Part shown: positions 7,768-38,216 of the stretch, in pieces
Layout: each line of letters opens with the position of its first letter
Position numbering within the stretch: position 1 is the stretch's first letter
Assembly (NCBI GenBank): GCA_050122535.1
Contig: JASFIT010000001.1
Location: 1 to 41,019, forward strand
From: Desulfobacteraceae bacterium
GTDB lineage: Bacteria > Desulfobacterota > DSM-4660 > Desulfatiglandales > HGW-15
Length of the DNA: 41,019 nt
Reading direction: 5' to 3'
Translations under genes and position numbers: made by a program
Notes under the pieces: model-generated
Database searches by the model: none
What the model saw: the letters and a program-made list of their open reading frames with translations, nothing else
What the model was told of the DNA's origin: nothing

Positions 7768-7957
7768 CCCAGCCGCTTCATCTCCGCCTCGCCGCTATAG
7801 ACCATCCGCTCATAGCATATCAAACCGTCGCGTGGGGCAGACCACAGTGTCTGCAAAGAGGGCTTGATCATACCGCCCGGTTGAATCTTCTTAAAACTTG
7901 AATATTGAGGCGCTCCTATTCTATAGTGCCCCCAGCATTAGACGGGAGTACAGATGT

Positions 7958-11828: not shown

Positions 11829-12314
11829 ATGAAAGCACCACTTAAAAAAAGAAAATACACACGGTTGAAGAATAGAGAGATCTATTCCCAGGTTGGTGTG
11901 ATCGCCCATGTGATCATCGGCACCTTTGATAAACGACCCTATTTCGAACAAAGGGAGCTAGCCCAGAGACTCTGTCAGGTACTAATAGAAACTGCGAAAG
12001 AAAACCGGATCAAGATTTATGCATACTGCATAATGCCAGATCATGTCCATTTGCTGTTTGAGTCTTCCGAAAGCATGGGCGTCATTGAATTCGTCAGATA
12101 TATCAAAGGACGCTTTGCCACTTGGTGCCGTAAGAACAATAGGAACATGCGGTTGCAAAAAAGTTTTTATGACCACCTTTTGAGAAAAGAAGAAGACGTT
12201 TATAGCGCTGCAAAATACATAATGGGGAATCCAGTTCGAGCCGGAATCGAAACTCGTGTGGGCAATTATCCTTTCGCCGGATCCTTAGTGTTCGACTTCT
12301 CCGGTGGCATGTAA
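11829..12314 (+). CDS. REP-associated tyrosine transposase (RAYT; IS200/IS605-like Y1 HUH transposase)
   Basis: 161 aa. HUH motif in YCIMPDHVHLLF, and catalytic-Tyr region AAKYIMGNPVRAG typical of RAYT/TnpA-REP. REP hairpins on both flanks. Confidence 0.75.
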   Translation: MKAPLKKRKYTRLKNREIYSQVGVIAHVIIGTFDKRPYFEQRELAQRLCQVLIETAKENRIKIYAYCIMPDHVHLLFESSESMGVIEFVRYIKGRFATWCRKNNRNMRLQKSFYDHLLRKEEDVYSAAKYIMGNPVRAGIETRVGNYPFAGSLVFDFSGGM

Positions 12315-23472: not shown

Positions 23473-23922
23473 TTAGGCCGATTTGATCTCGATCTTTTTG
23501 ACGGACTGCTCCTTTGTCTTGGGCAGATTGAGTTTCAAGACACCGTCTTTGTAAGTAGCCTTTACCTTCGCAGAATCCACTTCCGATGGAAGTTCAAACG
23601 ACCTGGAGAAGGATCCATATCTTCGTTCTACTCTGTGGTAATTCTCCTCCTTCTCCTCCTGTTCGCTCTTTTTCTCCCCCTTGAGTGTGAGAACACGACC
23701 GTTCAGAGAAATGTCAATGTCCTTAGCCTCCATGCCAGGGATCTCCGCTTTTACGACAATCTCCTTGCCCGTCTCAGAGACGTCTATTGCGGGCATCCAC
23801 TCCCCCTCCCGAACGTGAAGATCAAAAGGCCGCCAGTCAAAGACCCGGTCAAACATTCTGTCCATTTCACTCCTAAATCGGTCCAGCTGTCTTCGCTCTC
23901 GCGATGGTATTAAATCTAACAT
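23473..23922 (-). CDS. Small heat-shock protein (Hsp20/alpha-crystallin family)
   Basis: 149 aa. PAIDVSETGKEIVVKAEIPGMEAKDIDISLNGRVLTLKGEKK...RSFELPSEVD...A.YKDGVLKLNLPK. Confidence 0.9.
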   Translation of the reverse strand: MLDLIPSRERRQLDRFRSEMDRMFDRVFDWRPFDLHVREGEWMPAIDVSETGKEIVVKAEIPGMEAKDIDISLNGRVLTLKGEKKSEQEEKEENYHRVERRYGSFSRSFELPSEVDSAKVKATYKDGVLKLNLPKTKEQSVKKIEIKSA

Positions 23923-24014: not shown

Positions 24015-24030
24015 GGCAACCACTGTGCCA
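24015..24030 (-). promoter_or_regulatory. Sigma-54 (-24/-12) promoter of hsp20
   Basis: The minus strand reads TGGCAC-AGTGG-TTGCC (GG-N10-GC, near consensus). The -12 element is 95 nt upstream of the ATG. Confidence 0.7.
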
Positions 24031-24083
24031 AGAGGTTAAGATATTGAAATTCCAGGGTTTCTATAATATGGCCAGGATTGAAG

Positions 24084-24100
24084 CGGAACTGCGAATTCCG
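24084..24100. promoter_or_regulatory. Candidate activator-binding palindrome (UAS), hsp20 proximal
   Basis: cgGAACtgcgaATTCcg, centred 63 bp upstream of the -24 GG. Confidence 0.55.
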
Positions 24101-24184
24101 GTTATTCCCTATAGATGTTATGCTACTTAGGTTCTCTTGGGTTTAAATCTCTCCAACATGTTGGATTAATTGAATGATCCAAAA

Positions 24185-24201
24185 AAGAACTGCCTGTTCC
24201 G
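24185..24201. promoter_or_regulatory. Candidate activator-binding palindrome (UAS), hsp20 distal
   Basis: aaGAACtgcctGTTCcg, 101 bp from the proximal site. Confidence 0.45.
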
Positions 24202-24230
24202 CTTTGTTTAACAGAAGAACTCGCAATTCC

Positions 24231-24809
24231 TCACCCTGTCTTACTCACAACCGTCAGTTCCTTTTCTCTTCTCTCCGCGTAGGGGTCTGCCAGGTGATGG
24301 CTGTATTTACTGATCATCCACAGCTCTGGAATGATTTCTGAGACCAACTCACCGTCATCAAATACGCGCACAATTGAGCTCTCTGAAACCACGATAGCTA
24401 CAGCATTAGTTTCTTTAGTGATTGAGGCTGCCGCCATATGACGGCTACCAAATCCCAAAGGTAGATCTATATTCTGAGACGCAGTGTTGATATAGAGGCA
24501 GGCCGAGACCACCACCCCATCATCAGAGATAACAAATGCGCCATCAAGTTGGGTCAGTTCTTTTACGGTCTCTCTCATGTTGGGATCATCTATACGTTTA
24601 AGCTCTTCGGAATGACCCTTTAGGGGATCGAGAATGATGTTCCTGGACCGTTTCAATACTTCATCTGAGTCCGAGACCACTAACAAGGTCCCCACTCTAC
24701 GGCCTTCACGACCCTCCCGGGCGATTTCCACAGCCAAAAGCAAAACATGCTCAAGGGTAATCAGGTTAATGTTTCGCTCTTCGCAACATACATCACGTAA
24801 GAGTTTCAA
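24231..24809 (-). CDS. Soluble DAC/DisA_N-domain protein (diadenylate-cyclase-like)
   Basis: 192 aa. TQLDGAFVISDDGVVVSA (DGA motif) and LPLGFGSRHMAAASITKETNAVAIVVSESS (RHR motif position reads RHM). No TM segments. Confidence 0.6.
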   Translation of the reverse strand: MKLLRDVCCEERNINLITLEHVLLLAVEIAREGREGRRVGTLLVVSDSDEVLKRSRNIILDPLKGHSEELKRIDDPNMRETVKELTQLDGAFVISDDGVVVSACLYINTASQNIDLPLGFGSRHMAAASITKETNAVAIVVSESSIVRVFDDGELVSEIIPELWMISKYSHHLADPYAERREKELTVVSKTG

Positions 24810-24908
24810 TGGAGTTTCCCTTCCAATCGTATTTCGGCTTACACCTATTACTGAGCATCAACTTCCTCGAAATCGCCATCCACAACATTTTCGTATGGCG
24901 GTATCTAA

Positions 24909-26135
24909 TCAAATAGATTCTCTGAAGTGGTCCCACAACCTAGGTAACTGGGTCCGAGGGTCAGCTACGTATTCATCTGGACTGATGTCGATAAAATCAT
25001 CATTTCTATTCTTTGAGTCCCTAAGGCGTAACTCATCAATCAAGCACTCAACATGCTCCTTTGGGTCAAGGGCGTGATCTAGGAGGCCAACGTATGCCAA
25101 TCTGGTCCACAACGACCATGGGGGTTTGGTACTGAGCGGGGAGTCTGGATCAGCTAGACTCAACCAGCTTACACCCTCCAGTCCCTGCTCGTTCAATCGC
25201 CTAGCAGACTCCAAAATTTCTCCAGATTCACGCATCTCACCCAATAAACTCCAGCCGATCTCAACTTCTATGGGTCGCCTGAAAAGCCATTGGGTCACCG
25301 TGCCTAAATATGCTGTGATCAATAGTTCGCCGACTAGATCCTCCCGTTTCTTGAGGCCGAGTTGCTCACTCTCGGAACCGCTCATTTTGAAACCATCCAC
25401 CTCAGCAGCAAGAGCTTGAGGCATTTGCGGATCCAAAAGCTCCGACCACCCTAAGCCCATGTAAATAGTTCCACTCTCGTCGCACTCCCTAATCTCGGCA
25501 ATATAGGACCTAAGCGCTATTTCAGCCACATGAAGCTCAGGCCTTGCCCATTCGAGAGCCCTGTCCAAGATGAGCCAACCCGTTAAGGCGGTGTGGCCGT
25601 GGACGGCAGTAACCACCTCGCGGAAAAGCCTTATCCTTTTCTGGAATATGAAGGGATCTGCCCACCAGTTGAAGGGCCAAAGATTTCGAATCCGACCATC
25701 CACAAAGACTTTGCCAGCTTTGGAGTCCCGGACTCCTCTAACCAAGTAAGGAGCCACGAAATTCAGCCCAAGTATTCGCTGGGCCGGTGCGATTAACCAG
25801 GCGTTGAGCTTAGCTTCGCCCACCTGGTCTAGGGCCTTAACAAGCCCATCCAGGTACTTCACTTTGGCCCTCGTCCCTTGCAACAGGGGCTCCTCCAAGA
25901 CTGGCAATAAGAGTCGGTCTAGGCCCAAAGACTTGGCCACTTTGGCCGCCCGGCCTAATCGAGCTGGCTCCGGCGGCTCCAGACCGACTAGACCCCTGAT
26001 TGGGCAGATGTATGTTGCTGAAATCGGCATTTCCTGCTTACGCTCATTTCTGAATTCTTCGAGGAGTCTCAGTTTTCCCGATTGCGGTATCTGCGATTTG
26101 CCGTGAGGAAAAGGGGATGCCAATTTGCGACGCAT
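24909..26135 (-). CDS. Hypothetical protein (408 aa). Possibly a TIM-barrel glycoside-hydrolase-like fold, but not securely recognised.
   Basis: Long ORF in an operon-like arrangement with the MarR and DAC genes. No diagnostic motif identified. Confidence 0.45.
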   Translation of the reverse strand: MRRKLASPFPHGKSQIPQSGKLRLLEEFRNERKQEMPISATYICPIRGLVGLEPPEPARLGRAAKVAKSLGLDRLLLPVLEEPLLQGTRAKVKYLDGLVKALDQVGEAKLNAWLIAPAQRILGLNFVAPYLVRGVRDSKAGKVFVDGRIRNLWPFNWWADPFIFQKRIRLFREVVTAVHGHTALTGWLILDRALEWARPELHVAEIALRSYIAEIRECDESGTIYMGLGWSELLDPQMPQALAAEVDGFKMSGSESEQLGLKKREDLVGELLITAYLGTVTQWLFRRPIEVEIGWSLLGEMRESGEILESARRLNEQGLEGVSWLSLADPDSPLSTKPPWSLWTRLAYVGLLDHALDPKEHVECLIDELRLRDSKNRNDDFIDISPDEYVADPRTQLPRLWDHFRESI

Positions 26136-26207
26136 CCCCTTTCCTGATAGATCAAATAAGGTCAGAACTCGAAGTTCCGCTTTCGAAGATTCCTTTGATC
26201 TTCTTGC

Positions 26208-26687
26208 TCATAGGTCTATTGAGGAAACTTCCACGGTTTTTATAAATTCCAGCAAGATTACAAGCCCTTCAGAAATTACCTGTAATTCCTCTAGGGCAAG
26301 TTTTTTAAAGTGGTTCGCAAGGAGCCTTTGAATTGGCCCACGCGCTGAATGGACAACTTGGCGGCCCATATCAGAGATTACCACATGAACAATGCGACGG
26401 TCTTCACTGAATCGCATTCGTTTCACTAGTCCTTTTTCTTGCAGTCGATCAACAATACCAGTAACCGTGGAGGGAGTTACAAGAACGTGCTTGCTTATAT
26501 CATTGATTGAAAGGCTGTTCTTTTTTAGCAACGTGCGCAGGCATAGTAATTGGCCTAAAGTGACTCCGAATTCTTTTTCCAAGTTTTTAGAGTACATGGT
26601 GGAAATATGGGTGGCAGCTCTTAATGCCAAAAAAATATTTTCCATGTTGTCTTGAATTAGACTTATTTCGGTATTCTCAGCATCCAT
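26208..26687 (-). CDS. MarR-family transcriptional regulator
   Basis: 159 aa. Winged-HTH region LGQLLCLRTLLKKNSLSINDISKHVLVTPSTVTGIVDRLQEKGLVKRMRFSEDRR. Confidence 0.8.
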   Translation of the reverse strand: MDAENTEISLIQDNMENIFLALRAATHISTMYSKNLEKEFGVTLGQLLCLRTLLKKNSLSINDISKHVLVTPSTVTGIVDRLQEKGLVKRMRFSEDRRIVHVVISDMGRQVVHSARGPIQRLLANHFKKLALEELQVISEGLVILLEFIKTVEVSSIDL

Positions 26688-26693
26688 ATGCGC

Positions 26694-26897
26694 TCACCCC
26701 TTCTTAGAAGCGGGCCGCCGCTCTAAACCGCTTCTCCGCTCTACGCCAACTTTGATGTCAGCAGCTTTTCTTCGGTCCCTACCACTTCTTCGGTCTTTGC
26801 CATTTCTCCGGTCTTGACCACTTCGTCTCTCAGGAATATGTTCGTTATAAGAAAATTGCCTTTCGACCAATCCCTGAACGCCTGTCGCCGTTATCAC
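26694..26897 (-). CDS. Small arginine-rich repeat protein (RRSGxDRR repeats), 6 nt upstream of marR
   Basis: 67 aa: ERRSGQDRRNGKDRRSGRDRRK...ERRSGLERR. GTG start with no clear Shine-Dalgarno, so coding status is uncertain. Confidence 0.4.
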   Translation of the reverse strand: MITATGVQGLVERQFSYNEHIPERRSGQDRRNGKDRRSGRDRRKAADIKVGVERRSGLERRPASKKG

Positions 26898-27062
26898 TTA
26901 AGAAAAGAATCAACTCTGACTCTATCACGTCCGCATATTCCTTTGTATGTAGCTGAAACCAACATAGTGTCTCTTCGACGCCCTATTTCAAAGTTTGTAA
27001 TGGTGTAGGGAGACTATCTAGTCTTCGCTGTCTTCTTGCTCCAATTGCCAACTGTGGCAAAC

Positions 27063-27343
27063 TCAGATTTCTTCTGGGGTTAGCTTTGCTCTCTTTCCAC
27101 CAACGAAAGTAAACTTGGGCGCTTTCGTGCTAAGTCGCAGCATCTTATTCTTGAAGACCTCCCGACCAGAACTGTACACACGCCTTAGTCCATTGTATCT
27201 ACCAGAATCTCACATCCATCATCGCAATTTCTTCTCAGAGCATTAAACAACTTCTGCACAGAAGAACCGTCAAGGTCACCTTTTAATTTTATACAAAGTT
27301 TACCGTTTCTTTGCAAAAAGCACATTCTGAAATTGGACGCCAT
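27063..27343 (-). pseudogene. STAS-like (anti-sigma-antagonist-like) gene split by a frameshift
   Basis: Frame 1: MASNFRMCFLQRNGKLCIKLKGDLDGSSVQKLFNALRRNCDDGCEILVDTMD-stop (27185..27343). The adjacent frame continues GLRRVYSSGREVFKNKMLRLSTKAPKFTFVGGKRAKLTPEEI (to 27063). Together these match the STAS pattern. Confidence 0.35.
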
Positions 27344-27368
27344 ACCCTCCACCCCTTTTCGAATCTTG

Positions 27369-27464
27369 CTAAAACCAGAAAAACCTTAGAGTGCTTGCCA
27401 CGCGACCTTTATATTTCCGGATAGCCTCTGCCACCTCCTTCATGGATCCCGGCTTGTCTTCTAG
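27369..27464 (-). pseudogene. ACT-domain remnant in the +1 frame of the CBS gene
   Basis: The alternative frame reads LEDKPGSMKEVAEAIRKYKGRVASTL, a typical ACT beta-alpha start as in CBS-ACT (AcuB-like) proteins. It is preceded by TAG and truncated after ~31 codons. Confidence 0.45.
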
Positions 27465-27903
27465 CTAAGAGGCAAAGAATATATTTCTTACTGAGCGCCG
27501 TTACAGACATTAGCGCTTTCAATATGTTTGTTTGTGTTATCATTCCTACCAGCTCTCCTTTCTGGTCAACCACAGGAGCCCCCGATATCTTATTATTCAG
27601 TAGTATTTCAGCAGTCTCTTCCACAGTATAATCAGGCTCAACTGTGATGGGATTTCTCGTCATAATTTCACTGACCTTGGTTTTGTTTTTGAGGTTAATG
27701 AGTTCATGAATATCCAGGCTGGTCGCCTCAGAAGCGGAACCTTCTTTGAGATCCCTATCCGTGACGATTCCCACCAGCTTACCTTTTTTCATGACAGGAA
27801 GCATAAGAATTTTATGCTTTTTCAGAAGCTTAACGGCATCCATCATGGTGTCGTTTATGTCAGCAGTAATCAGCTTTTTGCTCATCCAATTCTTAACTAG
27901 CAT
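27409..27903 (-). CDS. CBS-pair domain protein. The C-terminus is out of frame relative to an ACT-domain remnant.
   Basis: 164 aa. Two CBS motifs (MLPVMKKGKLVGIVTDRDL; GAPVVDQKGELVGMITQTNILKAL). The last ~25 aa (ILCLLARRQAGIHEGGGRGYPEI) look non-native. Confidence 0.7.
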   Translation of the reverse strand: MLVKNWMSKKLITADINDTMMDAVKLLKKHKILMLPVMKKGKLVGIVTDRDLKEGSASEATSLDIHELINLKNKTKVSEIMTRNPITVEPDYTVEETAEILLNNKISGAPVVDQKGELVGMITQTNILKALMSVTALSKKYILCLLARRQAGIHEGGGRGYPEI

Positions 27904-28328
27904 CTGTAGCCCTCTTCCTTGTTTTGAGAATTGTTAAAACAAGATTCTCTATCCCAACGGATGTCATTATGCGAACTTATTTATAGTTCTTAGGCTACTT
28001 CTTCGATAATCTGCCCCTCCCTAAACGAGGTGGTTACGCTACTTCGATAACTCACTTCCCCTTGTAGCCACTCGCTTTAGGGACTTTAATTTGGCCTTAA
28101 TAGGAAGCAACCTCCTCTCTAAAATCCTTATGGCAAGGTTTGTACCACAATCATAACCTATTGATATTTGTAAACTTATCTCTGTAGGGTATGGATCGGC
28201 GGAATTACTTGTTCTGATAAATTTGAGAAAACAGGAAGGTTAACTCCTACGGGAAACTCTGTAGGTCCCTAAGTTATTGAAATGGCGAGGACATTTAGAA
28301 AGCAGAATTTTGGGTTCCGTTTTTTTTG

Positions 28329-28357
28329 TTGCCGGAACCATAAGTTCTTTTTATTAT
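28329..28357 (+). promoter_or_regulatory. Sigma-70-like promoter of the activator gene, with the regulon palindrome in its spacer
   Basis: TTGCCG-N17-TATTAT. The palindrome cgGAACcataaGTTCtt occupies 28333..28349. A GGAGG Shine-Dalgarno precedes the ATG at 28395. Confidence 0.4.
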
Positions 28358-28394
28358 AAGAAGCCGCAAGAAAGCCAGCTTTGCGGAGGCCAAG

Positions 28395-29792
28395 ATGAAA
28401 TCTATTCTTGTTCTATCAGGAAACGAAGAGGTTTTCCGTAAGATTCGTTCCAGTTTTCATTCAGAGTACAGACTTGGAAGCGCATCCAGCAGTCAGGCCG
28501 CCTTGGATATACTCCACAAAAAGCGCTACGATTCTATTTTTTTTGACATTGGGCTGCTGCAAGAGGCAGTGGAAGGTAACCAATATAGAGCCGCCCTGGA
28601 GCCGTTCTGGCGTATGCACCCAACGATCAAGATCATCATTATGACCCCCCAAGAGATGATTAGAGAAGCTGTGAGGGCAGTAAAGGCAGGTGCAAGTGAC
28701 TATGTGACTTTCCCTATTGTTGAAGAGGAAGTTAGACTCATAACGGAAACAGTCATGGAATCTACGATTGTTCAGTCGGAACTTGAGTATCTGCGAGATC
28801 AATTTTGGGAACCAGAGACATTAGAGATCGTACAGACGAAGAATGCCCAGATGGAAAAGGTATATGATAAGATACGCTCCGTTGCGCCAACCAAAAGTAC
28901 AGTTCTGCTGATGGGCGAAACGGGAACAGGTAAGGGCGTGCTAGCTAATCTCATTCATCAGCATAGTAACCGACGGAATGACCAGTTTATCAGCGTGCAC
29001 TGCGGAGCAATTCCCGATACCTTATTAGAGAGCGAGCTTTTTGGACATGAAAAAGGCGCCTTCACAGGTGCTATTAAGCGAAAGCTTGGGAAATTTGAGA
29101 TTGCCAGTGGAGGAACCATTTTTCTGGATGAAGTTGGAACCATTACACCGTCCGCACAGATTAAACTATTACAGGTATTGCAGGATGGCACTTTTCAACG
29201 CGTGGGAGGAGAAGAGACCTTTGATGCGAATGTTAGGGTGGTCACTGCCACAAATGCGGATCTAAAGGAAATGTGTGAGGAGGGGAGGTTCAGGAAAGAC
29301 CTCTATTACCGATTAAATGTGTTTCCCATTGAAATTCCTCCATTGAGGGAGCGGCCGGAGGATATCCCTCATCTCGTGGAAGGGTCCCTGAAAAGGCTTA
29401 ATATGTTTAACACAAAGGAAATCTACCATATCGATACACAGGTGCTAGAAGCATTTAGGCATTACTCGTGGCCTGGAAATATCCGGGAATTGGAAAACCT
29501 TATTGAGAGGGCTTATATTTTGGAGAGTTCCCCTAGGTTGACACCGGAAAGTTTTCCGTCTGAACTGTTTGAATCTGGACTTTCTTTTGCAACTCTGTCG
29601 GTAGATTCTTCTTCTACCCTGGCGGAGGTAAGACGGAGGGGTATTGAAAATATTGAAAGGAACTACCTCAAGGACCTACTGACGCAAAAGAAAGGCAAAA
29701 TAAAGGAATCCGCAGAGGCTGCCGGAATTACCACACGCCAGCTCCACAAACTCATGGCGAAACATGAAATCCGCAAAGAAGAATTTAAATAA
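28395..29792 (+). CDS. Sigma-54-dependent transcriptional activator (NtrC/Fis family): receiver-like domain, AAA+ domain, Fis-type HTH
   Basis: 465 aa. Walker A GETGTGKG, intact GAFTGA (ESELFGHEKGAFTGA), Walker B FLDEVG, R-finger region, and C-terminal HTH (KIKESAEAAGITTRQLHKLM). Confidence 0.9.
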   Translation: MKSILVLSGNEEVFRKIRSSFHSEYRLGSASSSQAALDILHKKRYDSIFFDIGLLQEAVEGNQYRAALEPFWRMHPTIKIIIMTPQEMIREAVRAVKAGASDYVTFPIVEEEVRLITETVMESTIVQSELEYLRDQFWEPETLEIVQTKNAQMEKVYDKIRSVAPTKSTVLLMGETGTGKGVLANLIHQHSNRRNDQFISVHCGAIPDTLLESELFGHEKGAFTGAIKRKLGKFEIASGGTIFLDEVGTITPSAQIKLLQVLQDGTFQRVGGEETFDANVRVVTATNADLKEMCEEGRFRKDLYYRLNVFPIEIPPLRERPEDIPHLVEGSLKRLNMFNTKEIYHIDTQVLEAFRHYSWPGNIRELENLIERAYILESSPRLTPESFPSELFESGLSFATLSVDSSSTLAEVRRRGIENIERNYLKDLLTQKKGKIKESAEAAGITTRQLHKLMAKHEIRKEEFK

Positions 29793-30933: not shown

Positions 30934-30949
30934 CGCAACAAATATGCCA
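30934..30949 (-). promoter_or_regulatory. Sigma-54 (-24/-12) promoter of the MBL-fold hydrolase gene
   Basis: The minus strand reads TGGCAT-ATTTG-TTGCG (GG-N10-GC), about 60 nt upstream of the ATG at 30875. Confidence 0.65.
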
Positions 30950-30986: not shown

Positions 30987-31003
30987 GGGAACTCTCAGTT
31001 CAC
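30987..31003. promoter_or_regulatory. Candidate activator-binding palindrome
   Basis: ggGAACtctcaGTTCac. Confidence 0.4.
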
Positions 31004-31016
31004 TTTCATGGCATAA

Positions 31017-31033
31017 CGGAACTGAAATTTCTT
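31017..31033. promoter_or_regulatory. Candidate activator-binding palindrome (degenerate right half)
   Basis: cgGAACtgaaaTTTCtt, 102 bp from the site at 31119. Confidence 0.4.
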
Positions 31034-31118
31034 ATTTAGATTTTCTTTGTCATTTCAATTTATTAGCCAAACGCTAGCCGATAATGGGTACATCAAAGTG
31101 CTCTTCGGACGTTCAAAA

Positions 31119-31135
31119 CGGAACAGATAATTCCG
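31119..31135. promoter_or_regulatory. Candidate activator-binding palindrome (UAS) for the 31190 promoter
   Basis: cgGAACagataATTCcg, centred 64 bp upstream of the -24 GG. Confidence 0.55.
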
Positions 31136-31189: not shown

Positions 31190-31205
31190 TGGCATAACTG
31201 TTGCT
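31190..31205 (+). promoter_or_regulatory. Sigma-54 (-24/-12) promoter of the 31299..34224 gene string
   Basis: TGGCAT-AACTG-TTGCT (GG-N10-GC), about 95 nt upstream of the ATG at 31299. Confidence 0.7.
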
Positions 31206-31298: not shown

Positions 31299-31511
31299 AT
31301 GAACGTATTAGCTCAGAAAAGTGGAACTTTTGGTCTAGATTCCCCTTACCTAAGCGCCGTCAGGACGACGCTATATGACCTTATTGAAGCGATGACTGAC
31401 GAGGCCGAACCGACTAATGAGGATTTGATTTTTGTGGCCGTCTTAGATCTTACTGAATCTGGCAAAATAAAATGGACACGACCGCGTCGAGCTTTCAAGC
31501 TTTTATATTAA
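31299..31511 (+). CDS. Small acidic hypothetical protein (70 aa)
   Basis: ATG 31299 lies 8 nt after GGAG. It is the first gene after the sigma-54 promoter. No family recognised. Confidence 0.5.
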   Translation: MNVLAQKSGTFGLDSPYLSAVRTTLYDLIEAMTDEAEPTNEDLIFVAVLDLTESGKIKWTRPRRAFKLLY

Positions 31512-31614: not shown

Positions 31615-31866
31615 ATGCTCAATACAAATGATAGGCTAATTACGATCCGCGGCCTTATCATCCCAGTGAATTGGGACGAGGGGGGCGAAGTAACCGCAAT
31701 TGCTACCTCCACCTTTGATGAGGAGGAGTATCTGCTGGATTATAATAAAAAAATAGAACGACTCTTCTCGCTTATCCGAAAAGAAGTGGAAGTCACCGGC
31801 TATGTAAGAAAGGAGAAGGGGAAAAAAATCATGAAAGTCCAAAAATTTCACCTAAAGAGGACCTAA
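31615..31866 (+). CDS. Small protein, paralog 1 of a three-member family in this window (unrecognised family)
   Basis: 83 aa with a GAGAGGAG Shine-Dalgarno. Shares ITIxG-x-(I/V)xPxxWDxxGxV(T/S)...(E)xLF...VEVTGxV...(I/L)xVxx(F/Y) with 34806..35072 and 35144..35479. Confidence 0.6.
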   Translation: MLNTNDRLITIRGLIIPVNWDEGGEVTAIATSTFDEEEYLLDYNKKIERLFSLIRKEVEVTGYVRKEKGKKIMKVQKFHLKRT

Positions 31867-31917
31867 CATACGGGACCCGCCACACTCCATACCACTGCTT
31901 CACCCGCCCATGAATCC

Positions 31918-33060
31918 ATGTCTGGCAATCGTATAATCGGCTATGACTTTGCCAGGGCTCTAACCCTTCTCGGCATGCTGCTCATAAATTTTTGGGTGAT
32001 GATGGAAAATACTCCTTTCGATCCCCATTGGCTCGTTTCCACGTTGGATCTCATTCAAGGACGGGCAGCAGCAACATTTGTTCTTCTCGCCGGAGTCGGT
32101 CTGTCCTTGATGTCAAAGAGTGCATTGCTGAACAATGACGCTGCTCGTATGAGAGAAAACCGGTATCTAATTCTTAAACGCGCGCTCTTTCTTTTTATCA
32201 TAGGGATGTTGAACAGTCTGATCTGGAGAGCAGATATCCTGCACGTCTATGGAATTTACTTTGTAATTGGGATGTGTCTCTTGATCGTTCCTACTCGTCG
32301 ACTGTTGCTGCTATCTATTATTCCTGTGGCCGTTTCTTCATTTTTCATGTTGGCGGTTGATTTTGACAGAGGACTGGCGTTTAAGACAGACACCTATTCA
32401 GCTTTCTGGAAACCAACGGCAATGGCTTGGGATATCTTTTTCAATGGCCTTTACCCCGTATTTCCTTGGGCCACTTTCCTGATCCTGGGGATGTGGCTCG
32501 GTCGACAAAGGCTGTCTGACCCTGTTTTGAGGAAGAAAATTTTGTTTATAGGAATCGGCGTCGTTGCTTTTGCTGAATGCATTTCACGCATGGTTTTTCA
32601 CCTCTCTACCTCTGGCTTGAGTGTCTTGGACGCTGATGCGTTACTCATGTGGTTCACCATAGAGCCTTGGGATCCCATGCCACTTTTCATGCTTTCAGCG
32701 GGCGGAACCGCGGTTATCGTTGTCAGCTTCAGCATTTCCATTGCACAGAAGTGGGGCAACACCAAATGGATTCTGCCTTTTGTGTCTGTTGGTCAGACTA
32801 CCCTCACTCTTTATGTCGCCCACATAATTATCGGTAGCATTGCCTTGGAAGTGATGAAAGTGTACGAAGTAGAGCCCTTTCTTTTCCCTATTTGGGGGGC
32901 ATGCGCTTTCTACATCAGTGCACTCATTCTTTGTTCTTATTGGAGAAAAAGTTTTCAAAAAGGGCCCTTAGAGTGGCTCATGCGAAGTTCTCTTGATATT
33001 CCTTTTCCGTTGCGGGCCTTTAGGCACGCAAGAGTAAAATTGGCACAACCTGATTTTTAG
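31918..33060 (+). CDS. Polytopic membrane protein, DUF418/DUF1624 (YeiB-like, acyltransferase-3-like) family
   Basis: 380 aa. N-terminus RIIGYDFARALTLLGMLLINF is typical of the family. About 10 hydrophobic helices. Confidence 0.65.
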   Translation: MSGNRIIGYDFARALTLLGMLLINFWVMMENTPFDPHWLVSTLDLIQGRAAATFVLLAGVGLSLMSKSALLNNDAARMRENRYLILKRALFLFIIGMLNSLIWRADILHVYGIYFVIGMCLLIVPTRRLLLLSIIPVAVSSFFMLAVDFDRGLAFKTDTYSAFWKPTAMAWDIFFNGLYPVFPWATFLILGMWLGRQRLSDPVLRKKILFIGIGVVAFAECISRMVFHLSTSGLSVLDADALLMWFTIEPWDPMPLFMLSAGGTAVIVVSFSISIAQKWGNTKWILPFVSVGQTTLTLYVAHIIIGSIALEVMKVYEVEPFLFPIWGACAFYISALILCSYWRKSFQKGPLEWLMRSSLDIPFPLRAFRHARVKLAQPDF

Positions 33061-33153
33061 ATGAGATATGACGGGCATTAGACTCAGCATACACCTCGTT
33101 TATGCAAGTTGCTTTCTTGAGCGTTTGACGAGGACTAAAGAGGAGGAATTCGT

Positions 33154-33315
33154 ATGAATCAAAATTTCAAAGGGCCACCCGAAACCGAATCTGCTTCTAC
33201 TCATCCAGATTTGGTCATTGATGATATTATCCAATCCATTGAGAAGGTGGATAGGGAAATAGAGAGATTTTACAAAATCCATAGAACCGAATTGACAGCC
33301 ACAGATGATGACTGA
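33154..33315 (+). CDS. Small ORF (53 aa), below the ORF-track cut-off
   Basis: ATG preceded by AGAGGAGG with 5-nt spacing. Translation: MNQNFKGPPETESASTHPDLVIDDIIQSIEKVDREIERFYKIHRTELTATDDD. Confidence 0.4.
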   Translation: MNQNFKGPPETESASTHPDLVIDDIIQSIEKVDREIERFYKIHRTELTATDDD

Positions 33316-33470
33316 AGCTCCTCAGGAGGGCGAGTGGACCAGGAGTTGACGTCTTTATTGCACCCGTTTGGTTCTATCCAAATCTGGTCCTGTGGGATTT
33401 AGGGAAACTGAATGCTTGACGATGATGATTCGGACAGTAGGGTCAGCGCGACCGAAAGGAGGAAAAGACC

Positions 33471-33686
33471 ATGAGAATCAATTGTAATATTTGCGGGTAT
33501 GAGTTGAATTTGGATCACAAAGTGTTCCAGAACTATGAAGGTCCTATCAAGTGCTTCTATTGCGGCAATGTGATGCTTATCAAAACTAGCCGGGGAATAG
33601 TAGACTCTATAGAATCATCAAGCGTTCTACTACCACAATCCCCCGGACGTGCGGTCAGGCGCACGCCTCAAAACCCGGAATTGTGA
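33471..33686 (+). CDS. Small zinc-ribbon protein (71 aa)
   Basis: CNIC...(22 aa)...CFYC. Strong Shine-Dalgarno AAAGGAGG upstream. Confidence 0.55.
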   Translation: MRINCNICGYELNLDHKVFQNYEGPIKCFYCGNVMLIKTSRGIVDSIESSSVLLPQSPGRAVRRTPQNPEL

Positions 33687-33723
33687 TTTCTTCCAACTTT
33701 CAGGATGAAATAGGAGCTCGATC

Positions 33724-34224
33724 ATGCAGAACCAGAGACTGGATGTAAAGCAAGAGGTAGCCGAAAAAGGTTCTACAATTTTGGTGGCAGTAGATTTTTC
33801 CCCTTGTTCCCTGTTGGCATTGAGGAAGGCAAAGTCTATATTGGGGCAAAAGCCAGCCCGAATCTTGGTGCTCCATGTGATTGACAAAGATTTCATTGAA
33901 AGATGTGTTCGCCACGGCCTGGGGTCAGAGGAAGAAGTCAGCAAAAAACTATTTCTTCGTGCCAAAGAAAAACTTGATCATGTCCTTCGTCAAGAAGGAA
34001 TGGATGTTGAGCACGTGGAAAAATTGGTTTGCCCAGGGACGCCCTACCTGGAAATAAACAAGAGGGCACTCCAGATCGGCGCCGACATGGTTGTAATGGG
34101 ATGTAGTGGAAACTCCGGGGACATGGATAATATCTTTTTCGGTAGCACAACCGAGAGGGTCTTGAGATTTATCAAACGTCCCGTGCTCTGTGTGCCAGAT
34201 AGCGAAGACAATAAACTGGACTAA
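33724..34224 (+). CDS. Universal stress protein (UspA family)
   Basis: 166 aa. ILVAVDFSPCS, ILVLHVID, MVVMGCSG, FGSTTERVLRFIKRPVLCVP. Confidence 0.8.
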   Translation: MQNQRLDVKQEVAEKGSTILVAVDFSPCSLLALRKAKSILGQKPARILVLHVIDKDFIERCVRHGLGSEEEVSKKLFLRAKEKLDHVLRQEGMDVEHVEKLVCPGTPYLEINKRALQIGADMVVMGCSGNSGDMDNIFFGSTTERVLRFIKRPVLCVPDSEDNKLD

Positions 34225-34310
34225 AGAATCCGCACCCGAAGAATACGGCTCTAAGTATGCCCCCCATAGGGGGGCGTCACTGCTGAATCCCACGGTACCC
34301 TGACCAGGAA

Positions 34311-34397
34311 AAATCCCCCCGCCCGCCATTCCATCCTCCGTAGCAAGCTACTGCGGAGGACGGGCGCGAACCGCTCAGGCGAGGCGGGGGGGGATTT
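34311..34397. repeat. REP-like long hairpin related to elements at 9200..9390
   Basis: AAATCCCCCCGCC...GGCGGGGGGGGATTT arms. The interior CCGTAGCAAGCTACTGCGG and CCGCTCAGGCGAGGCGGG both recur in the 9118..9437 element. A separate perfect hairpin GCCCCCC-ata-GGGGGGC lies at 34259..34275. Confidence 0.5.
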
Positions 34398-34517
34398 GAT
34401 AGAGATTCCTTTAATCAACACCATCTCGGCCTTCAGTCCAGCCCCATTCGGGACCGGCATAGCCCGTCCCACATGACCGCACCCATAGGGTACGGGTTTC
34501 CAAGTCTCACTAAATTT

Positions 34518-34534
34518 CGGAATTCTGGGTTCCG
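34518..34534. promoter_or_regulatory. Candidate activator-binding palindrome (distal)
   Basis: cgGAATtctggGTTCcg. Confidence 0.5.
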
Positions 34535-34548
34535 ATAGCCGAAGAAAG

Positions 34549-34565
34549 CAGAACTCAAAGTTCTT
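34549..34565. promoter_or_regulatory. Candidate activator-binding palindrome
   Basis: caGAACtcaaaGTTCtt. Confidence 0.4.
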
Positions 34566-34649
34566 CGCGTCATTTTCACGTTTTTTCAATATCTTAAACG
34601 TCTACAAAGGTTGTTGCGGCTGACAGCCAGCCCACCCAGCCGAGCCTAT

Positions 34650-34666
34650 CTGAACTATGAGTTCTT
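34650..34666. promoter_or_regulatory. Candidate activator-binding palindrome (proximal) for the 34720 promoter
   Basis: ctGAACtatgaGTTCtt, centred 63 bp upstream of the -24 GG. Confidence 0.45.
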
Positions 34667-34719
34667 ATAGTATGCTGCACATATGAGCATAATGTAGACA
34701 TATCAACAAGTTATGGCTG

Positions 34720-34735
34720 TGGCATATCTATTGCT
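34720..34735 (+). promoter_or_regulatory. Sigma-54 (-24/-12) promoter of the 34806 operon
   Basis: TGGCAT-ATCTA-TTGCT (GG-N10-GC), about 72 nt upstream of the ATG at 34806. Confidence 0.7.
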
Positions 34736-34805
34736 TTGGGGTTTGTAACTGAATGGTACACGGCTTTCGCCTGACGCAAGAATCCTCTGGAGAGGAAAGA
34801 TACAA

Positions 34806-35072
34806 ATGCAAGAGCATCAAAAGAGAGAGATCACCATTCGCGGCACTATCCTTCCAGATGAGTGGGACAAGAATGGTCATGTTACGAGTGTCGGGATAGG
34901 GACCGAAGATGAAGAGGATTATATTATCTTTCTGGATAAAATTGGAGAGAAATTATTCAAGTTCGTCGACCGAAAAGTAGAGGCTACGGGTACTGTGAAG
35001 AACGTGTACGGCGATTTTGTCCTCACGGTAAACAACTACAAGCTCTTACCAGAGGACGATGAAGAAGAATAA
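34806..35072 (+). CDS. Small protein, paralog 2 of the three-member family (acidic C-terminal tail)
   Basis: 88 aa. REITIRGTILPDEWDKNGHVTSVGIGTEDEEDYII...GEKLFKFVDRKVEATGTVKN...VLTVNNYKLLPEDDEEE. Confidence 0.6.
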   Translation: MQEHQKREITIRGTILPDEWDKNGHVTSVGIGTEDEEDYIIFLDKIGEKLFKFVDRKVEATGTVKNVYGDFVLTVNNYKLLPEDDEEE

Positions 35073-35143
35073 TTTTGTGCGCAACATTCTTTGCAATCAG
35101 TTTCTAAATAAGTGACGGACTGTTCGCATGAGGAGATAAACAT

Positions 35144-35479
35144 ATGAAAAGGGAAGATTCATCAGAGGAGATTACCATAACGGGTTATGTGACACCAAGA
35201 GATTGGGACTGGAACGATGTTGTGAGCGCTGTCAGCATAGAGACCCATGATAATGTGTATGCAATCGAACCAAATAGCCTGGGTGAAGAACTCTTCAGTG
35301 AACTGGATAGCGAGGTGGAAGTAACAGGATTTCTCGAAAAAGACAGGGATGGAACAAAGCGAATAACTGTTACAAGCTATGAAGTCCTGATCGAACCCGG
35401 CGACAGAGAAGAGGAGAATTACGGATATGACGATGATGGGCAGGAGTTTGGATCTAAACAAGGGGAAAGTCCGATCTAA
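35144..35479 (+). CDS. Small protein, paralog 3 of the three-member family (long acidic tail)
   Basis: 111 aa. EEITITGYVTPRDWDWNDVVSAVSIETHDNVYAI...GEELFSELDSEVEVTGFLEKD...RITVTSYEVL, then an acidic tail. Confidence 0.6.
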   Translation: MKREDSSEEITITGYVTPRDWDWNDVVSAVSIETHDNVYAIEPNSLGEELFSELDSEVEVTGFLEKDRDGTKRITVTSYEVLIEPGDREEENYGYDDDGQEFGSKQGESPI

Positions 35480-35615
35480 ATCTGCAAGAAGAAAGGAAAT
35501 AGGAAATGAAAGAGAGTGCAGTTGATCTTTTTAGTGGGGCCAGTGGACAGCACGTACCGTTTACTGAAGAAGCTGACTTTCCGAAAGATTACATTTCTTC
35601 AGAAGAGGAGCTTAT

Positions 35616-35996
35616 ATGAATCCTAGGCAGCTTGAGTATTTCCGACGTAAACTCCTCTCCTGGCGTGAGCAACTTTTGAAAGAATCGGGTGAGAGCCTCC
35701 AGCGCCTAAAGGAAAGTAGCACAAGGGAAATTGATCTTTTGGACCAAGGCACTCTTGAGACGAGTAGCAATTTAAAGCTTAGCACTCGCGATAGGTGCCT
35801 GGTACTTGTCGACGAAATTGATGATGCTTTAGAGAGGATCAAGGATGGTACCTACGGGTACTGTGAGGATACAGGCGAAGAAATTGGGTTGAAGCGCCTT
35901 GAAGCCCGTCCCACTGCTAGGCTCTGTCTTGAAGCCCAAGAATGGCGTGAACGTGGGAGGAGGCGAAAGGGGCGGTGGAATCTGGCCTATGCCTGA
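35616..35996 (+). CDS. dksA: DksA/TraR-family RNA-polymerase-binding protein, zinc-independent DksA2-like variant
   Basis: 126 aa. Coiled-coil tip DLLDQG (DxxDxA-like). The C-terminal finger reads CEDT-x17-CLEA (CxxT...CxxA) where canonical DksA has CxxC-x17-CxxC. LKRLEARPTARLC is conserved. Confidence 0.75.
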   Translation: MNPRQLEYFRRKLLSWREQLLKESGESLQRLKESSTREIDLLDQGTLETSSNLKLSTRDRCLVLVDEIDDALERIKDGTYGYCEDTGEEIGLKRLEARPTARLCLEAQEWRERGRRRKGRWNLAYA

Positions 35997-36038: not shown

Positions 36039-36329
36039 ATGAACATAAAACCATTGAACGACAGGGTACTCGTTTTGAGGATTGAGGAGGAGCAAAAGAC
36101 CTCGGGCGGGATCGTTATTCCGGATACGGCCAAAGAAAAACCGCAGGAAGGAAAAGTGATTGCTGTTGGGCCCGGGAGATTTGACGAAAAGGGAAAACGA
36201 ATTCCTGTGGACATCAAGAAGAATGATCGCGTGCTTTTTGGCAAGTATGCGGGCAATGAAATAAAGCTTGATGGTGTGGAACATATAATAATGCGAGAGG
36301 ATGATATCCTCGGTATTGTGGACAAATAA
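36039..36329 (+). CDS. groES: Co-chaperonin GroES
   Basis: 96 aa. [12 protein letters not shown]...[24 protein letters not shown]. Confidence 0.95.
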
Positions 36330-36343
36330 GGAGGTGTTGAGTC

Positions 36344-37966
36344 ATGGCAAAAAAGGAAATCAAATATAGCGCGCAGGCCAGAGAAAAGATGATGAAAGGT
36401 GTGGACACCCTGGCCAATGCCGTTAAAGTAACCCTCGGACCAAAGGGCCGGAATGTGCTCCTCGAGAAGTCGTGGGGCTCGCCCAAGATCAGCAAAGACG
36501 GAGTGACCGTAGCCAAGGAGATCGAACTTGAAGATAAGTTCGAGAACATGGGCGCACAGATGGTCAAGGAGGTGGCCTCCAAAACCTCTGATGCTGCAGG
36601 AGACGGCACCACAACGGCCACCATCCTTGCTCAGGCTATATACCGCGAAGGCTCCAAGCTATTAGCCGCGGGGTCTAACCCTATGGCCATAAAAAGAGGT
36701 GTGGAAAAGGCAGTGGGAGTCGTGGTGGAAGAGCTTAAGAAGCTCTCAAAACCAACGAAAGACAAGGTGGAAATTGCCCAAGTGGGCACCATCTCGGCAA
36801 ACAACGATAGCACCATCGGGGATATTATCTCTGAGGCCATGGAAAAGGTGGGCAAAGAGGGCGTTATCACCGTTGAAGAAGCCAAAGCTATGGAGACCAC
36901 TCTGGAGATTGTGGAAGGGATGCAGTTTGATCGTGGATACCTGAGCCCCTACTTCGTGACGGATGCTGAGAAAATGGAGGTAGAGCTCGAGGAACCTTAC
37001 ATCCTTTTGAATGAAAAAAAGATCAGCAACATGAAAGACCTCCTTCCTATCCTGGAACAAATCGCCAAGATGGGTAAACCCTTTCTGATCATTGCAGAGG
37101 ATGTGGACGGGGAGGCCCTGGCCACCCTGGTGGTCAACAAGCTACGTGGGACCCTGAAATGTGCAGCCGTCAAGGCACCTGGTTTCGGCGACAGGCGTAA
37201 GGCGGTACTCCAGGATATTGCCATACTGACGGGTGGTCAGGTGGTCAGTGAAGACCTGGGCATAAAGCTAGAAAATATTACCTTAAATGACTTGGGCACT
37301 GCCAAGCGAATCACCATTGACAAGGACAACACCACGATCGTGGATGGAGGAGGTGACCGTGTGGCCCTTGAGGGCAGGGTTAAACAGCTAAGGGTCCAAG
37401 TTGATGAGACCACCTCTGATTACGACAGAGAAAAACTCCAGGAGCGGCTGGCCAAGCTGATCGGGGGCGTCGCCGTGATTAACGTAGGCGCAGCGACCGA
37501 AACCGAAATGAAGGAGAAAAAGGACAGGGTTGAGGACGCCCTTAATGCCACCCGGGCTGCAGTGGAAGAAGGGATTGTTCCGGGCGGTGGTGTTGCCTAC
37601 TTGAGGGCGATGAAAGCGCTTGACAAACTCCAGTTGCCTGGAGAAGAGCAATTTGGGATCAAGCTGGTAAGACGGGCCCTCGAAGAACCCATTAGAGAAA
37701 TTGCCAACAATGCAGGTTTTGAGGGATCTATTGTCACCAGGCGAGTTATGGATGCTGAGGGCAATTTTGGATTCAATGCTGAAACAGGTGTCTACGAAGA
37801 CCTGATGAAAGCGGGTGTTGTGGATCCCACCAAGGTGACTCGATTGGCGCTCCAAAATGCAGCATCTGTGGCTGGACTCCTTCTCACCACCGAAGCCATG
37901 GTTGCTGAGAAGCCGGAAAAGAGGAAGGCTGCGGCACCGGCTATGCCTCCAGAGGATATGTACTAG
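36344..37966 (+). CDS. groEL: Chaperonin GroEL
   Basis: 540 aa. [37 protein letters not shown]...[13 protein letters not shown]. Confidence 0.95.
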
Positions 37967-38051: not shown

Positions 38052-38216
38052 ATGCCCATATATGAGTTCATCTGCCAGAAATGTAATAAACCCTTCACCC
38101 TAACCATAGCCATTTCAGAACATGAAAAGAAGAAGTTTCGATGTCCAGAATGCAGAAGCACCAGGGTGAAGCAGCAAATCACATCTTTTCAGACAAAGAC
38201 CTCTAAAAAGAGTTAG
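38052..38216 (+). CDS. FmdB-family zinc-ribbon protein (54 aa), below the ORF-track cut-off
   Basis: MPIYEFICQKCNKPF...FRCPECRSTRVKQ, the CxxC...CxxC FmdB signature. GGAGG lies 6 nt upstream. Confidence 0.6.
   Translation: MPIYEFICQKCNKPFTLTIAISEHEKKKFRCPECRSTRVKQQITSFQTKTSKKS

Follow-up and report, generated by a model that had tools for sequence, protein, structure and literature searches.

What do three small, related proteins of no recognised family do in the neighbourhood of stress genes? The question is raised by a 41,019-nt stretch of DNA from a Desulfobacteraceae bacterium (GenBank assembly GCA_050122535.1, contig JASFIT010000001.1, positions 1 to 41,019), here called the window, in which an earlier note made from the sequence alone had pointed out three open reading frames (ORFs). 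We refer to them as A, B and C, and their coordinates are collected with those of all other features in Table 1. Our analysis leads us to the view that A, B and C are probably binding proteins without enzymatic activity and the hallmark of an undescribed sigma-54 regulon for proteotoxic or general stress; for the proteins, a holdase-like role may be proposed.

The three plus-strand ORFs and their kinship proved to be just as the earlier note had described them. Pairwise BLASTP gave 41% identity for A and B (E 2.5e-19), 41% for B and C (E 5.7e-15) and 37% for A and C (E 8.8e-13), and the proposed common alignment of ~75 residues contains 21 invariant columns. A hidden Markov model (HMM) of the family recovered exactly A, B and C from the 41-kb window (E ~1e-36 each) and no further copies. 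Each ORF is preceded at a distance of 6-9 nt by the good Shine-Dalgarno sequence ascribed to it (GAGGAG or GGAGAGG), and none of the three encodes a signal peptide. Their description as small acidic proteins fits B (isoelectric point [pI] 4.55, net charge -10) and C (pI 4.05, net charge -21) but not A, which is basic (pI 9.26, net charge +3). Comparison with the orthologs in a related contig, L001, yielded ratios of nonsynonymous to synonymous substitution (dN/dS) of 0.158 for A and 0.125 for B. A lack of conservation in relatives had been named beforehand as a possible refutation; what we found were orthologs and, beyond them, hundreds of homologs. A, B and C are genuine paralogous genes under selective constraint. 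Note that an in-frame TGA interrupts the ortholog of C (position 8405 in L001, also in L002 and L003, thus in three independent assemblies) at the place where the window, at ~35207-35209, has TGG, the second Trp codon of a DWDWN stretch. Gene callers report an N-terminally truncated 85-aa protein (P0077) for this TGA-bearing ortholog, which is either a pseudogene or a case of read-through.

The sigma-54 promoters that had been claimed for these genes were found as well, and they turned out to be part of a larger arrangement. That is, the -24/-12 motifs (TGGCAY-N5-TTGCW) at 34720 and 31190 are each accompanied by three upstream dyads of the form nGAA-N7-TTCn, best represented by GGAAC-N5-GTTCC and scored by a scripted 15-mer analysis, which stand at fixed offsets of about -201, -170 and -69. 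At the B promoter, the stretch from the distal to the proximal dyads also holds an IHF-like TTCAATATCTTAA. The entire regulatory region of B, this element included, recurs in L001, with identical bases in the part that holds the three dyads; the promoter there, a perfect consensus match, sits 85 nt before the B ortholog. Four triple-dyad modules are present in the window, compared with none in 200 dinucleotide-preserving shuffles. Across all loci, dyads number 7.9/kb in the 300 nt before a sigma-54 motif versus 0.54/kb elsewhere, a 14-fold enrichment, and a sigma-54 motif with at most two mismatches is located at offset 200-206 from 29 of 31 triple-dyads. With no chance occurrences, the module is specific enough to serve as a probe for the regulon in metagenomes. 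Judged from these sequence comparisons, the predicted sigma-54 control of A, B and C is borne out by a conserved composite cis-module. The statement that all three ORFs lie downstream of sigma-54 promoters needs qualification: it is true of B directly, whereas A stands behind a small ORF and C has no promoter of its own. For this reason, C must, on the predicted promoter map, be cotranscribed with B.

How far this arrangement extends was assessed in a sample of related loci, seeded in GTDB species genomes by the single peptide motif P[VAT]DWD[ED]KG. This motif-limited scan returned 25 loci, mostly from metagenome-assembled genomes (MAGs) of Desulfobacterota (Syntrophobacterales, Desulfobacteraceae, Ca. 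Desulfacyla and uncultured Desulfobacterium), the remainder being a few bins labelled Aminicenantes, Verrucomicrobiota, 'Eubacteriales' and Pseudomonadota; no cultured isolate was among them. Carriers of the family are almost only metagenome-assembled Desulfobacterota plus a few other bins. The triple-dyad module recurs in divergent MAGs, always near an orthologous activator gene of the response-regulator type, and the comparison of gene neighbourhoods that the earlier note had recommended indeed showed the activator and stress genes recurring near family genes. Family members lead the list of first genes behind the module (10 directly and 5 more via small70 or hyp120 leader ORFs), followed by groES/EL, hsp20, CBS, lysine-2,3-aminomutase (LAM) and PALP-DUF1611 genes. 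In L004, L016, L019 and L021, groES or groEL has a copy of the module to itself. Sigma-54 motifs are also seen before MBL hydrolase, DUF418, HPF-CSD and small zinc-ribbon genes of this island or of related loci, and genes of the regulon type in the related loci include HPF-CSD, HtrA, MBL hydrolase and an osmolyte-type lysine-aminomutase cluster, those of the window itself being hsp20, groESL, dksA, Usp and CBS.

A candidate for the protein that reads the module is encoded in the window itself, in the form of a sigma-54 enhancer-binding protein. Its orthologs across the related loci are 58-86% identical and share a near-invariant helix-turn-helix (HTH), 'AAGITTRQLHKLM', and the activator gene adjoins family genes in ~22 of 28 loci. 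The near-invariant HTH agrees with the conservation of the dyad, and we infer that the activator binds the GGAAC-N5-GTTCC sites. In the receiver domain of the window protein and its orthologs (L001-L031), the usual N-terminal acidic pair is replaced ('ILVVSKEQE' for 'DD'), while the putative phospho-acceptor Asp (~D51) is kept. No histidine kinase gene was noticed beside the activator in the loci examined, which were not checked systematically for one; a single HATPase_c gene lies ~6.5 kb downstream in L008. The input signal of the activator may be unconventional.

Structure prediction by AlphaFold2 (AF2), one of the checks that the earlier note had proposed, was run on B and C and gave an oligonucleotide/oligosaccharide-binding (OB) fold for both, in line with the small beta-rich, barrel-like fold that had been guessed from the pattern of hydrophobic residues. 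The model of B, computed from family alignments, reached a predicted local distance difference test score (pLDDT) of 88.4 and a predicted template-modelling score (pTM) of 0.76, with the elements b1(8-20), b2(26-32), b3(38-41), helix(45-53), b4(57-67) and b5(70-80), the first strand being long and bent. The model of C has the same topology, with a core pLDDT >90, while tail residues ~86-111 stay below 50; the acidic tail of C is thus predicted to be disordered. Searching the PDB with both models, Foldseek returned OB domains only (TM 0.5-0.6, E 3e-4 to 1e-2), among them Stn1, RPA32, the OB domain of PolC, SSB, PriB and the N-terminal domains of Asp-, Lys- and Asn-tRNA synthetases; the best matches for C were the N-terminal OB domains of AspRS and LysRS, RPA and SSB. 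B and C are therefore confidently predicted to adopt the canonical OB topology b1-b2-b3-helix-b4-b5 with a core of ~75 residues. This fold is generic, and by itself does not place A, B and C in a functional family.

Nor do sequence profiles place them in one. The searches against Pfam and PDB advised in the earlier note gave no confident match to a characterised family: nothing passed threshold for the window proteins in Pfam or NCBIfam (best E ~0.03-0.05), and the best PDB sequence-profile matches, E 0.12 with profile A1 and E 0.98 with profile A3, were not significant. The designation as an unrecognised family has therefore largely held. It is a large one, however we set the cutoff: when 1.84 billion cluster representatives (50% identity) were searched exhaustively with a profile, 2391 clusters were returned at E<=1e-3, 923 of them still at E<=1e-10, united by the signature TI.G.V.P..WD..GNV ... 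T.DEEEY ... G.EL ... VEVTG.V ... G.K.I.V..Y. All named members are 'hypothetical protein' and all come from MAGs. The label 'RNase M5', attached to three homologs by the Joint Genome Institute (JGI), was rejected; it goes back to a 26-residue local match of 18 bits versus a cutoff of 129 for the COG1658/PRK04017-type model, and no Toprim match appeared in our Pfam scans. Matches to the C-terminal domain of HPF (E ~0.2) were dropped as non-significant, even though HPF goes by the name of 'sigma-54 modulation protein'.

While uncurated, the family is not wholly isolated, since it is a distant sister of Pfam DUF5818 (PF19135), which is itself a family of unknown function and on which literature searches found nothing. 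A, B and C do not match the DUF5818 model even at E<=10. Among wider relatives, however, 7 of 67 diverse members gave sub-threshold matches (best E 2.4e-4), and two exported short relatives scored 24.8 and 18.6 bits against a gathering threshold of 27, the former being a member of the same operon in L004. Alignment of the window family (A2) with the exported DUF5818-like group (A9) by hhalign gave a probability of 98.2% and E 4.8e-14 over 73 columns, the sole large difference being a 10-residue gap at the P..WD..G hairpin, and the family HMM (A3) detected the exported L004 protein at E 1.6e-15. Both groups have the b3-helix-b4-b5 core and the signature T.DD..Y ... G.EL ... VxVTGxV ... I.V..Y, and DUF5818-like genes share operons and sigma-54 modules with family genes in L004, L018, L021 and L026. 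They differ in that the window proteins possess the extra 10-residue P..WD..G hairpin between b1 and b2 and lack a signal peptide, whereas the DUF5818-like relatives examined are exported and score just below the gathering cutoff. On the strength of these profile comparisons, the window family is a homologous, hairpin-bearing and mostly cytoplasmic sister of DUF5818.

The pairing of cytoplasmic and exported forms is a recurrent feature. In 13 of 27 non-redundant related loci, tandem family genes are found of which one lacks and one has an N-terminal signal peptide (for example, L006 7001-7258 and 7341-7667; L001 1915-2262, beside hsp20; also L004, L018, L021, L026 and L028), commonly under one promoter. 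The window has cytoplasmic copies only; the exported fourth copy located beside hsp20 in L001-L003 is absent here. In terms of charge, 72% of family members have a pI <5.5 and ~13% are basic, C-termini are acidic in 64 of 150 representatives and N-termini basic in 41 of 150, and the member in L030 ends in a 45-residue poly-Glu tail. Within the cytoplasmic part of the family, both basic and acidic proteins are seen, many of them ending in a disordered acidic tail, and exported forms bearing signal peptides come in addition. An exported protein with three tandem family domains was also observed (P0182). The apparent two-domain fusion P0103 has an internal signal peptide, which makes it look like the read-through of a cytoplasmic and a neighbouring exported gene; we rejected it as evidence for oligomerisation.

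Taken together, we propose that binding of the activator to the dyads would switch on a regulon for proteotoxic or general stress, of which the OB proteins would be the most constant output. As non-enzymatic binding modules, they would protect or escort other macromolecules under stress; their action would be holdase-like and independent of ATP, in cytoplasm and periplasm alike, with the acidic tails adding solubilising polyanionic character. Taken alone, the holdase-like mechanism of protective binding is a tentative proposal.

Small, single-domain, non-enzymatic proteins under the control of stress regulons are well established in the form of the stress-induced OB-fold family BOF (YgiW/YdeI) and of the ATP-independent periplasmic chaperones Spy and HdeA/B, with which the window family shares these traits, the periplasm being the compartment that its exported paralogs would occupy. 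The likeness has limits: no Pfam scan gave a match to BOF (PF04076), the three copies in the window are cytoplasmic, and their predicted regulators are sigma-54 and an activator, not RpoS, Cpx or Bae. On the regulatory side, the sigma-54 stress regulon psp/PspF likewise combines a -24/-12 promoter, an upstream activator region and an AAA+ activator to drive chaperone and stress genes. What sets the present case apart from known sigma-54 stress regulons are the three GGAAC-N5-GTTCC dyads at fixed offsets, the group of receiver-containing activators and the OB-family cargo. In silico, chaperone COGs have been found enriched among sigma-54 promoters, with predicted control of GroEL, IbpA, GroES and DnaK in Planctomycetota and Bacteroidota (PMC12316311). 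Neither this module nor the activator group or the OB family figures in the paper on the sigma-54 regulome of D. vulgaris (PMC4641369). Our literature searches on DUF5818, on sigma-54 together with groESL, hsp20 or heat shock, and on OB-fold stress proteins turned up no description of the family or the regulon.

Several points weigh against the proposed role in stress protection. Regulation and function are both deduced wholly by comparison, all sequences being from MAGs or metagenome contigs, in which the labels Aminicenantes, Verrucomicrobiota and 'Eubacteriales' may reflect mis-binning, and the sample of loci obtained with a single motif is biased toward one subfamily. The lysine-aminomutase and MgtE neighbours point equally to osmotic or cation stress. 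In addition, the nearest structural neighbours found by Foldseek are all nucleic-acid-binding OB domains; A and ~13% of the family are basic, as are the N-termini of 41 of 150 representatives, and some of these proteins may bind RNA or DNA.

The two last-named points also speak for the first alternative, namely that these are nucleic-acid-binding OB proteins of the SSB, RPA or Csp kind which coat single-stranded DNA or chaperone RNA under stress, with acidic tails that, as in SSB, would recruit partners or auto-inhibit the binding face. The predicted five-strand barrel with its helix between b3 and b4 is that of the N-terminal anticodon-binding domain of class IIb aminoacyl-tRNA synthetases, RPA32/Stn1 and SSB/PriB, and the conserved Trp of the L12 hairpin and Tyr of b3 could stack on bases. 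The acidic, disordered C-tail with its aromatic residues is reminiscent of the design of SSB and gp2.5. Pfam adds weak hints of tRNA_anti-codon (3 of 67 members, best E 0.058) and SSB_1 (E 0.33), yet neither of these models passed threshold and CSD gave no match; the family has no membership among nucleic-acid OB folds at the sequence level. Moreover, its signature lacks conserved basic residues, the net charge is -10 for B and -21 for C, and the pI lies below 5.5 in 72% of the family; signal-peptide paralogs are common, and the periplasm offers no nucleic-acid substrate; and the genomic context is one of chaperone and stress genes, not of replication or repair. We regard this alternative as unlikely for the family at large, and as most plausible for basic members of the A type. 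We favour the holdase-like, protective role over nucleic-acid binding, which is less likely in view of the exported paralogs and of the strong acidity of most members.

A second alternative, to which we likewise assign a low probability, is that the proteins serve to bind or buffer positively charged ions and solutes (Mg2+, Ca2+, polyamines or beta-lysine-type osmolytes) under osmotic or ionic stress, by means of the conserved acidic loops L12 and L23 and the acidic tails. The best-conserved surface is acidic and aromatic (WD..G in L12, T.DEEEY in L23/b3), and some tails are extremely acidic, as in the poly-Glu extension of the L030 member. Ion buffering would be plausible in both compartments, and the neighbours include MgtE, a mechanosensitive (MS) channel and clusters of lysine-2,3-aminomutase, ATP-grasp and acetyltransferase genes under the same module. 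A strict metal motif is nevertheless missing: the residue that precedes the W is variable, as are the ones behind WD, and neither DxDxDG nor any Cys, His or Met is conserved. The basic charge of A-type members does not agree with cation binding either, and it is chaperone genes (hsp20, groESL), not transporter genes, that constantly share the predicted regulation of the family.

Thirdly, the proteins might be regulatory partners of the transcription machinery, such as feedback modulators of the sigma-54 activator in the style of PspA-PspF, DNA mimics or DksA-associated RNA polymerase factors. Small acidic proteins are typical as DNA mimics or anti-activators. The tightest genomic association of the family is with the activator gene (~22 of 28 loci), B and C lie directly 5' of dksA in both the window and L004, and a receiver without the usual acidic pair and with no kinase gene noted beside it would leave room for unconventional input. 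Activators are, however, routinely encoded next to their targets, and adjacency is explained if the family is the main target; exported paralogs cannot reach cytoplasmic regulators, and up to three or four paralogs of divergent charge occur per locus, all of which makes this alternative improbable. Finally, the idea that the three ORFs arose by chance or have no function has the universal annotation as 'hypothetical protein' as its sole point and is effectively refuted by a signature conserved across hundreds of homologs, dN/dS values of 0.13-0.16, confident AF2 folds, and the conservation of Shine-Dalgarno sites and promoters.

With the stress-protective role preferred, the question becomes what is new about it. 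The OB fold is of a known kind, as is regulation by sigma-54, an activator and upstream sites. Not described in Pfam, NCBIfam or the literature searched are the family, its split into cytoplasmic and exported forms, and the triple-dyad regulon. This is not a categorically new system but a solid, testable lead on the stress physiology of uncultured sulfate reducers. A large family without a name in curated databases gains a confident fold, a signature, a link to DUF5818 and a regulatory context, which turns 'hypothetical proteins' into a testable stress-protein family. In uncultured sulfate reducers that abound in marine sediments, the module and the activator group would bring groESL, hsp20, dksA and genes of the HPF and osmolyte types under the control of sigma-54. 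In the textbook scheme, heat-shock genes are controlled by sigma-32 or by HrcA and its CIRCE element (controlling inverted repeat of chaperone expression). If our reading is true, heat-shock and general stress control in these bacteria would be wired differently. In the strongest version of this reading, the OB proteins would be ATP-independent chaperones or protectants of a new class, with paralogs matched between cytoplasm and periplasm, and would form the main product of an undescribed sigma-54/activator regulon of the heat-shock type. Within a clade of uncultured Desulfobacterota, that regulon would have replaced sigma-32/HrcA-CIRCE in controlling groESL and hsp20; as a whole, we consider this version doubtful.

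The features of the window on which the above is based, together with neighbouring genes, are listed in Table 1. The stress-gene neighbourhood that had been reported is real, in that Usp, DksA, GroES and hsp20 genes are present according to Pfam and groEL according to phmmer mapping and its ortholog in L001, but hsp20 is ~8 kb away and not adjacent.

Table 1. Features of the window around the family genes A, B and C, in order of position
Feature	Coordinates	Strand	Remarks
hsp20	23473..23922	-	~8 kb upstream of A/B/C region; same promoter module in front
Module before hsp20	24015..24230	-	Promoter 24015-24030; dyads 24085, 24186, 24216
CBS-pair gene	27409..27903	-	Same composite module in front
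Module before CBS-pair gene	28132..28348	-	Promoter 28132-28147, 2 mismatches; dyads 28201, 28304, 28334
Sigma-54 enhancer-binding protein (activator)	28395..29792	+	Receiver, AAA+ (GAFTGA) and C-terminal HTH; Pfam Sigma54_activat 229 bits, Response_reg 42 bits
Divergent promoter of MBL-fold gene	30934..30949	-	Dyads in common with 31190 promoter
Three dyads of 31190 promoter	30988..31134		Starts 30988, 31018, 31120; offsets -202/-172/-70
Predicted sigma-54 promoter	31190..31205	+	TGGCATAACTGTTGCT; small70-A-DUF418 unit; 425 nt 5' of A
small70	31299..31511	+	70-aa acidic ORF; first gene behind 31190 promoter, ahead of A
Paralog A	31615..31866	+	83 aa; basic; cytoplasmic; OB-fold family member; family HMM E 1.9e-36
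DUF418/HGSNAT_cat membrane protein	31918..33060	+	Directly 3' of A; recurrent neighbour in related loci
Usp (universal stress protein)	33724..34224	+	Pfam
Upstream activator region of B promoter	34519..34665		Dyads 34519-34533 (GGAATTCTGGGTTCC), 34550-34564, 34651-34665; offsets -201/-170/-69
Predicted sigma-54 -24/-12 promoter	34720..34735	+	TGGCATATCTATTGCT; 86 nt 5' of B
Paralog B	34806..35072	+	88 aa; acidic; predicted OB fold; short PEDDEEE tail; first gene behind sigma-54 promoter
Paralog C	35144..35479	+	111 aa; very acidic; predicted OB core and ~26-residue disordered acidic tail
dksA	35616..35996	+	3' of C; direct Pfam scan (DksA)
groES	36039..36329	+	Direct Pfam scan (Cpn10)
groEL	36344..37966	+	phmmer mapping and Cpn60 ortholog in L001

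Downstream of C, the order of genes raises the possibility of a long transcription unit. dksA and groES are separated by 43 nt, no terminator-like site was found on the plus strand between 30800 and 38300, and the whole window contains 0 matches to the CIRCE element. Given the absence of both CIRCE and a terminator-like site, groESL is most simply regarded as part of a sigma-54 unit with B, C and dksA. The promoter at 34720 likely drives B, C, a 37-aa ORF, dksA, groES and groEL, and groESL here appears to be free of classical HrcA control and reliant on the predicted sigma-54 module before B. The 37-aa ORF (35506-35619) has a stop codon overlapping the start codon of dksA (ATGA). In L001 and L004, DksA is 163 and 175 aa long, with the region of the 37-aa ORF fused in frame; the 126-aa DksA of the window still spans the full DksA_N and zinc-finger models. 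The 37-aa ORF is explained either by a frameshift of 1 nt, which may be a MAG error, or as a leader peptide in its own right that is translationally coupled. As for the unit that contains A, its first gene, small70, has no family match and is conserved only in the closest relatives (L001-L003).

Two segments distinguish the window from its close relative L001. The first is a GC-rich insertion of ~290 nt (34225-34513), absent from L001, that separates the stop codon of Usp from the first dyad. Part of it (34255-34400) folds at -77.6 kcal/mol (z = -4.9 versus shuffles) with no Rfam match, as is true of the window overall, in which no Rfam family was matched; the insertion could be a small mobile or REP-like (repetitive extragenic palindromic) element or a structured RNA. 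The second comprises ~4.3 kb of extra sequence (24231-28395) between hsp20 and the activator gene; in L001, no such insert parts hsp20, the gene of the exported family member and the activator gene, which directly adjoin one another. This insert contains ORFs of 192, 408 and 159 aa, the last MarR-like by eye, and the CBS gene, the sole one of the four that was scanned with Pfam.

Certain other genes recur in the related loci. A lysine-2,3-aminomutase gene lies directly 3' of family genes or behind a triple-dyad/sigma-54 module of its own in L007 (10383-12203), L018, L019, L022, L028 and L030, and in L007 and L008 it is accompanied by genes for two ATP-grasp ligases and an acetyltransferase, which suggests that synthesis of beta-lysine-type compatible solutes may be part of the same regulon. 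The regulon is also rich in uncharacterised small proteins. Recurrent examples are the zinc-ribbon protein 'hyp88', zf_Tbcl, a Rho_N-like 59-aa protein and a 120-aa protein without a family, hyp120 (L006 4429-4695 on the minus strand, 7795-8013 and 11932-12111; L007 8065-8427); the hyp88, hyp120 and Rho_N-like genes stand directly behind a sigma-54 motif or a full module. Two more small proteins of this sort are encoded in the window, namely a 71-aa CxxC...CxxC ORF (33471-33686) and an FmdB-type Zn_ribbon_8 protein (38052-38216).

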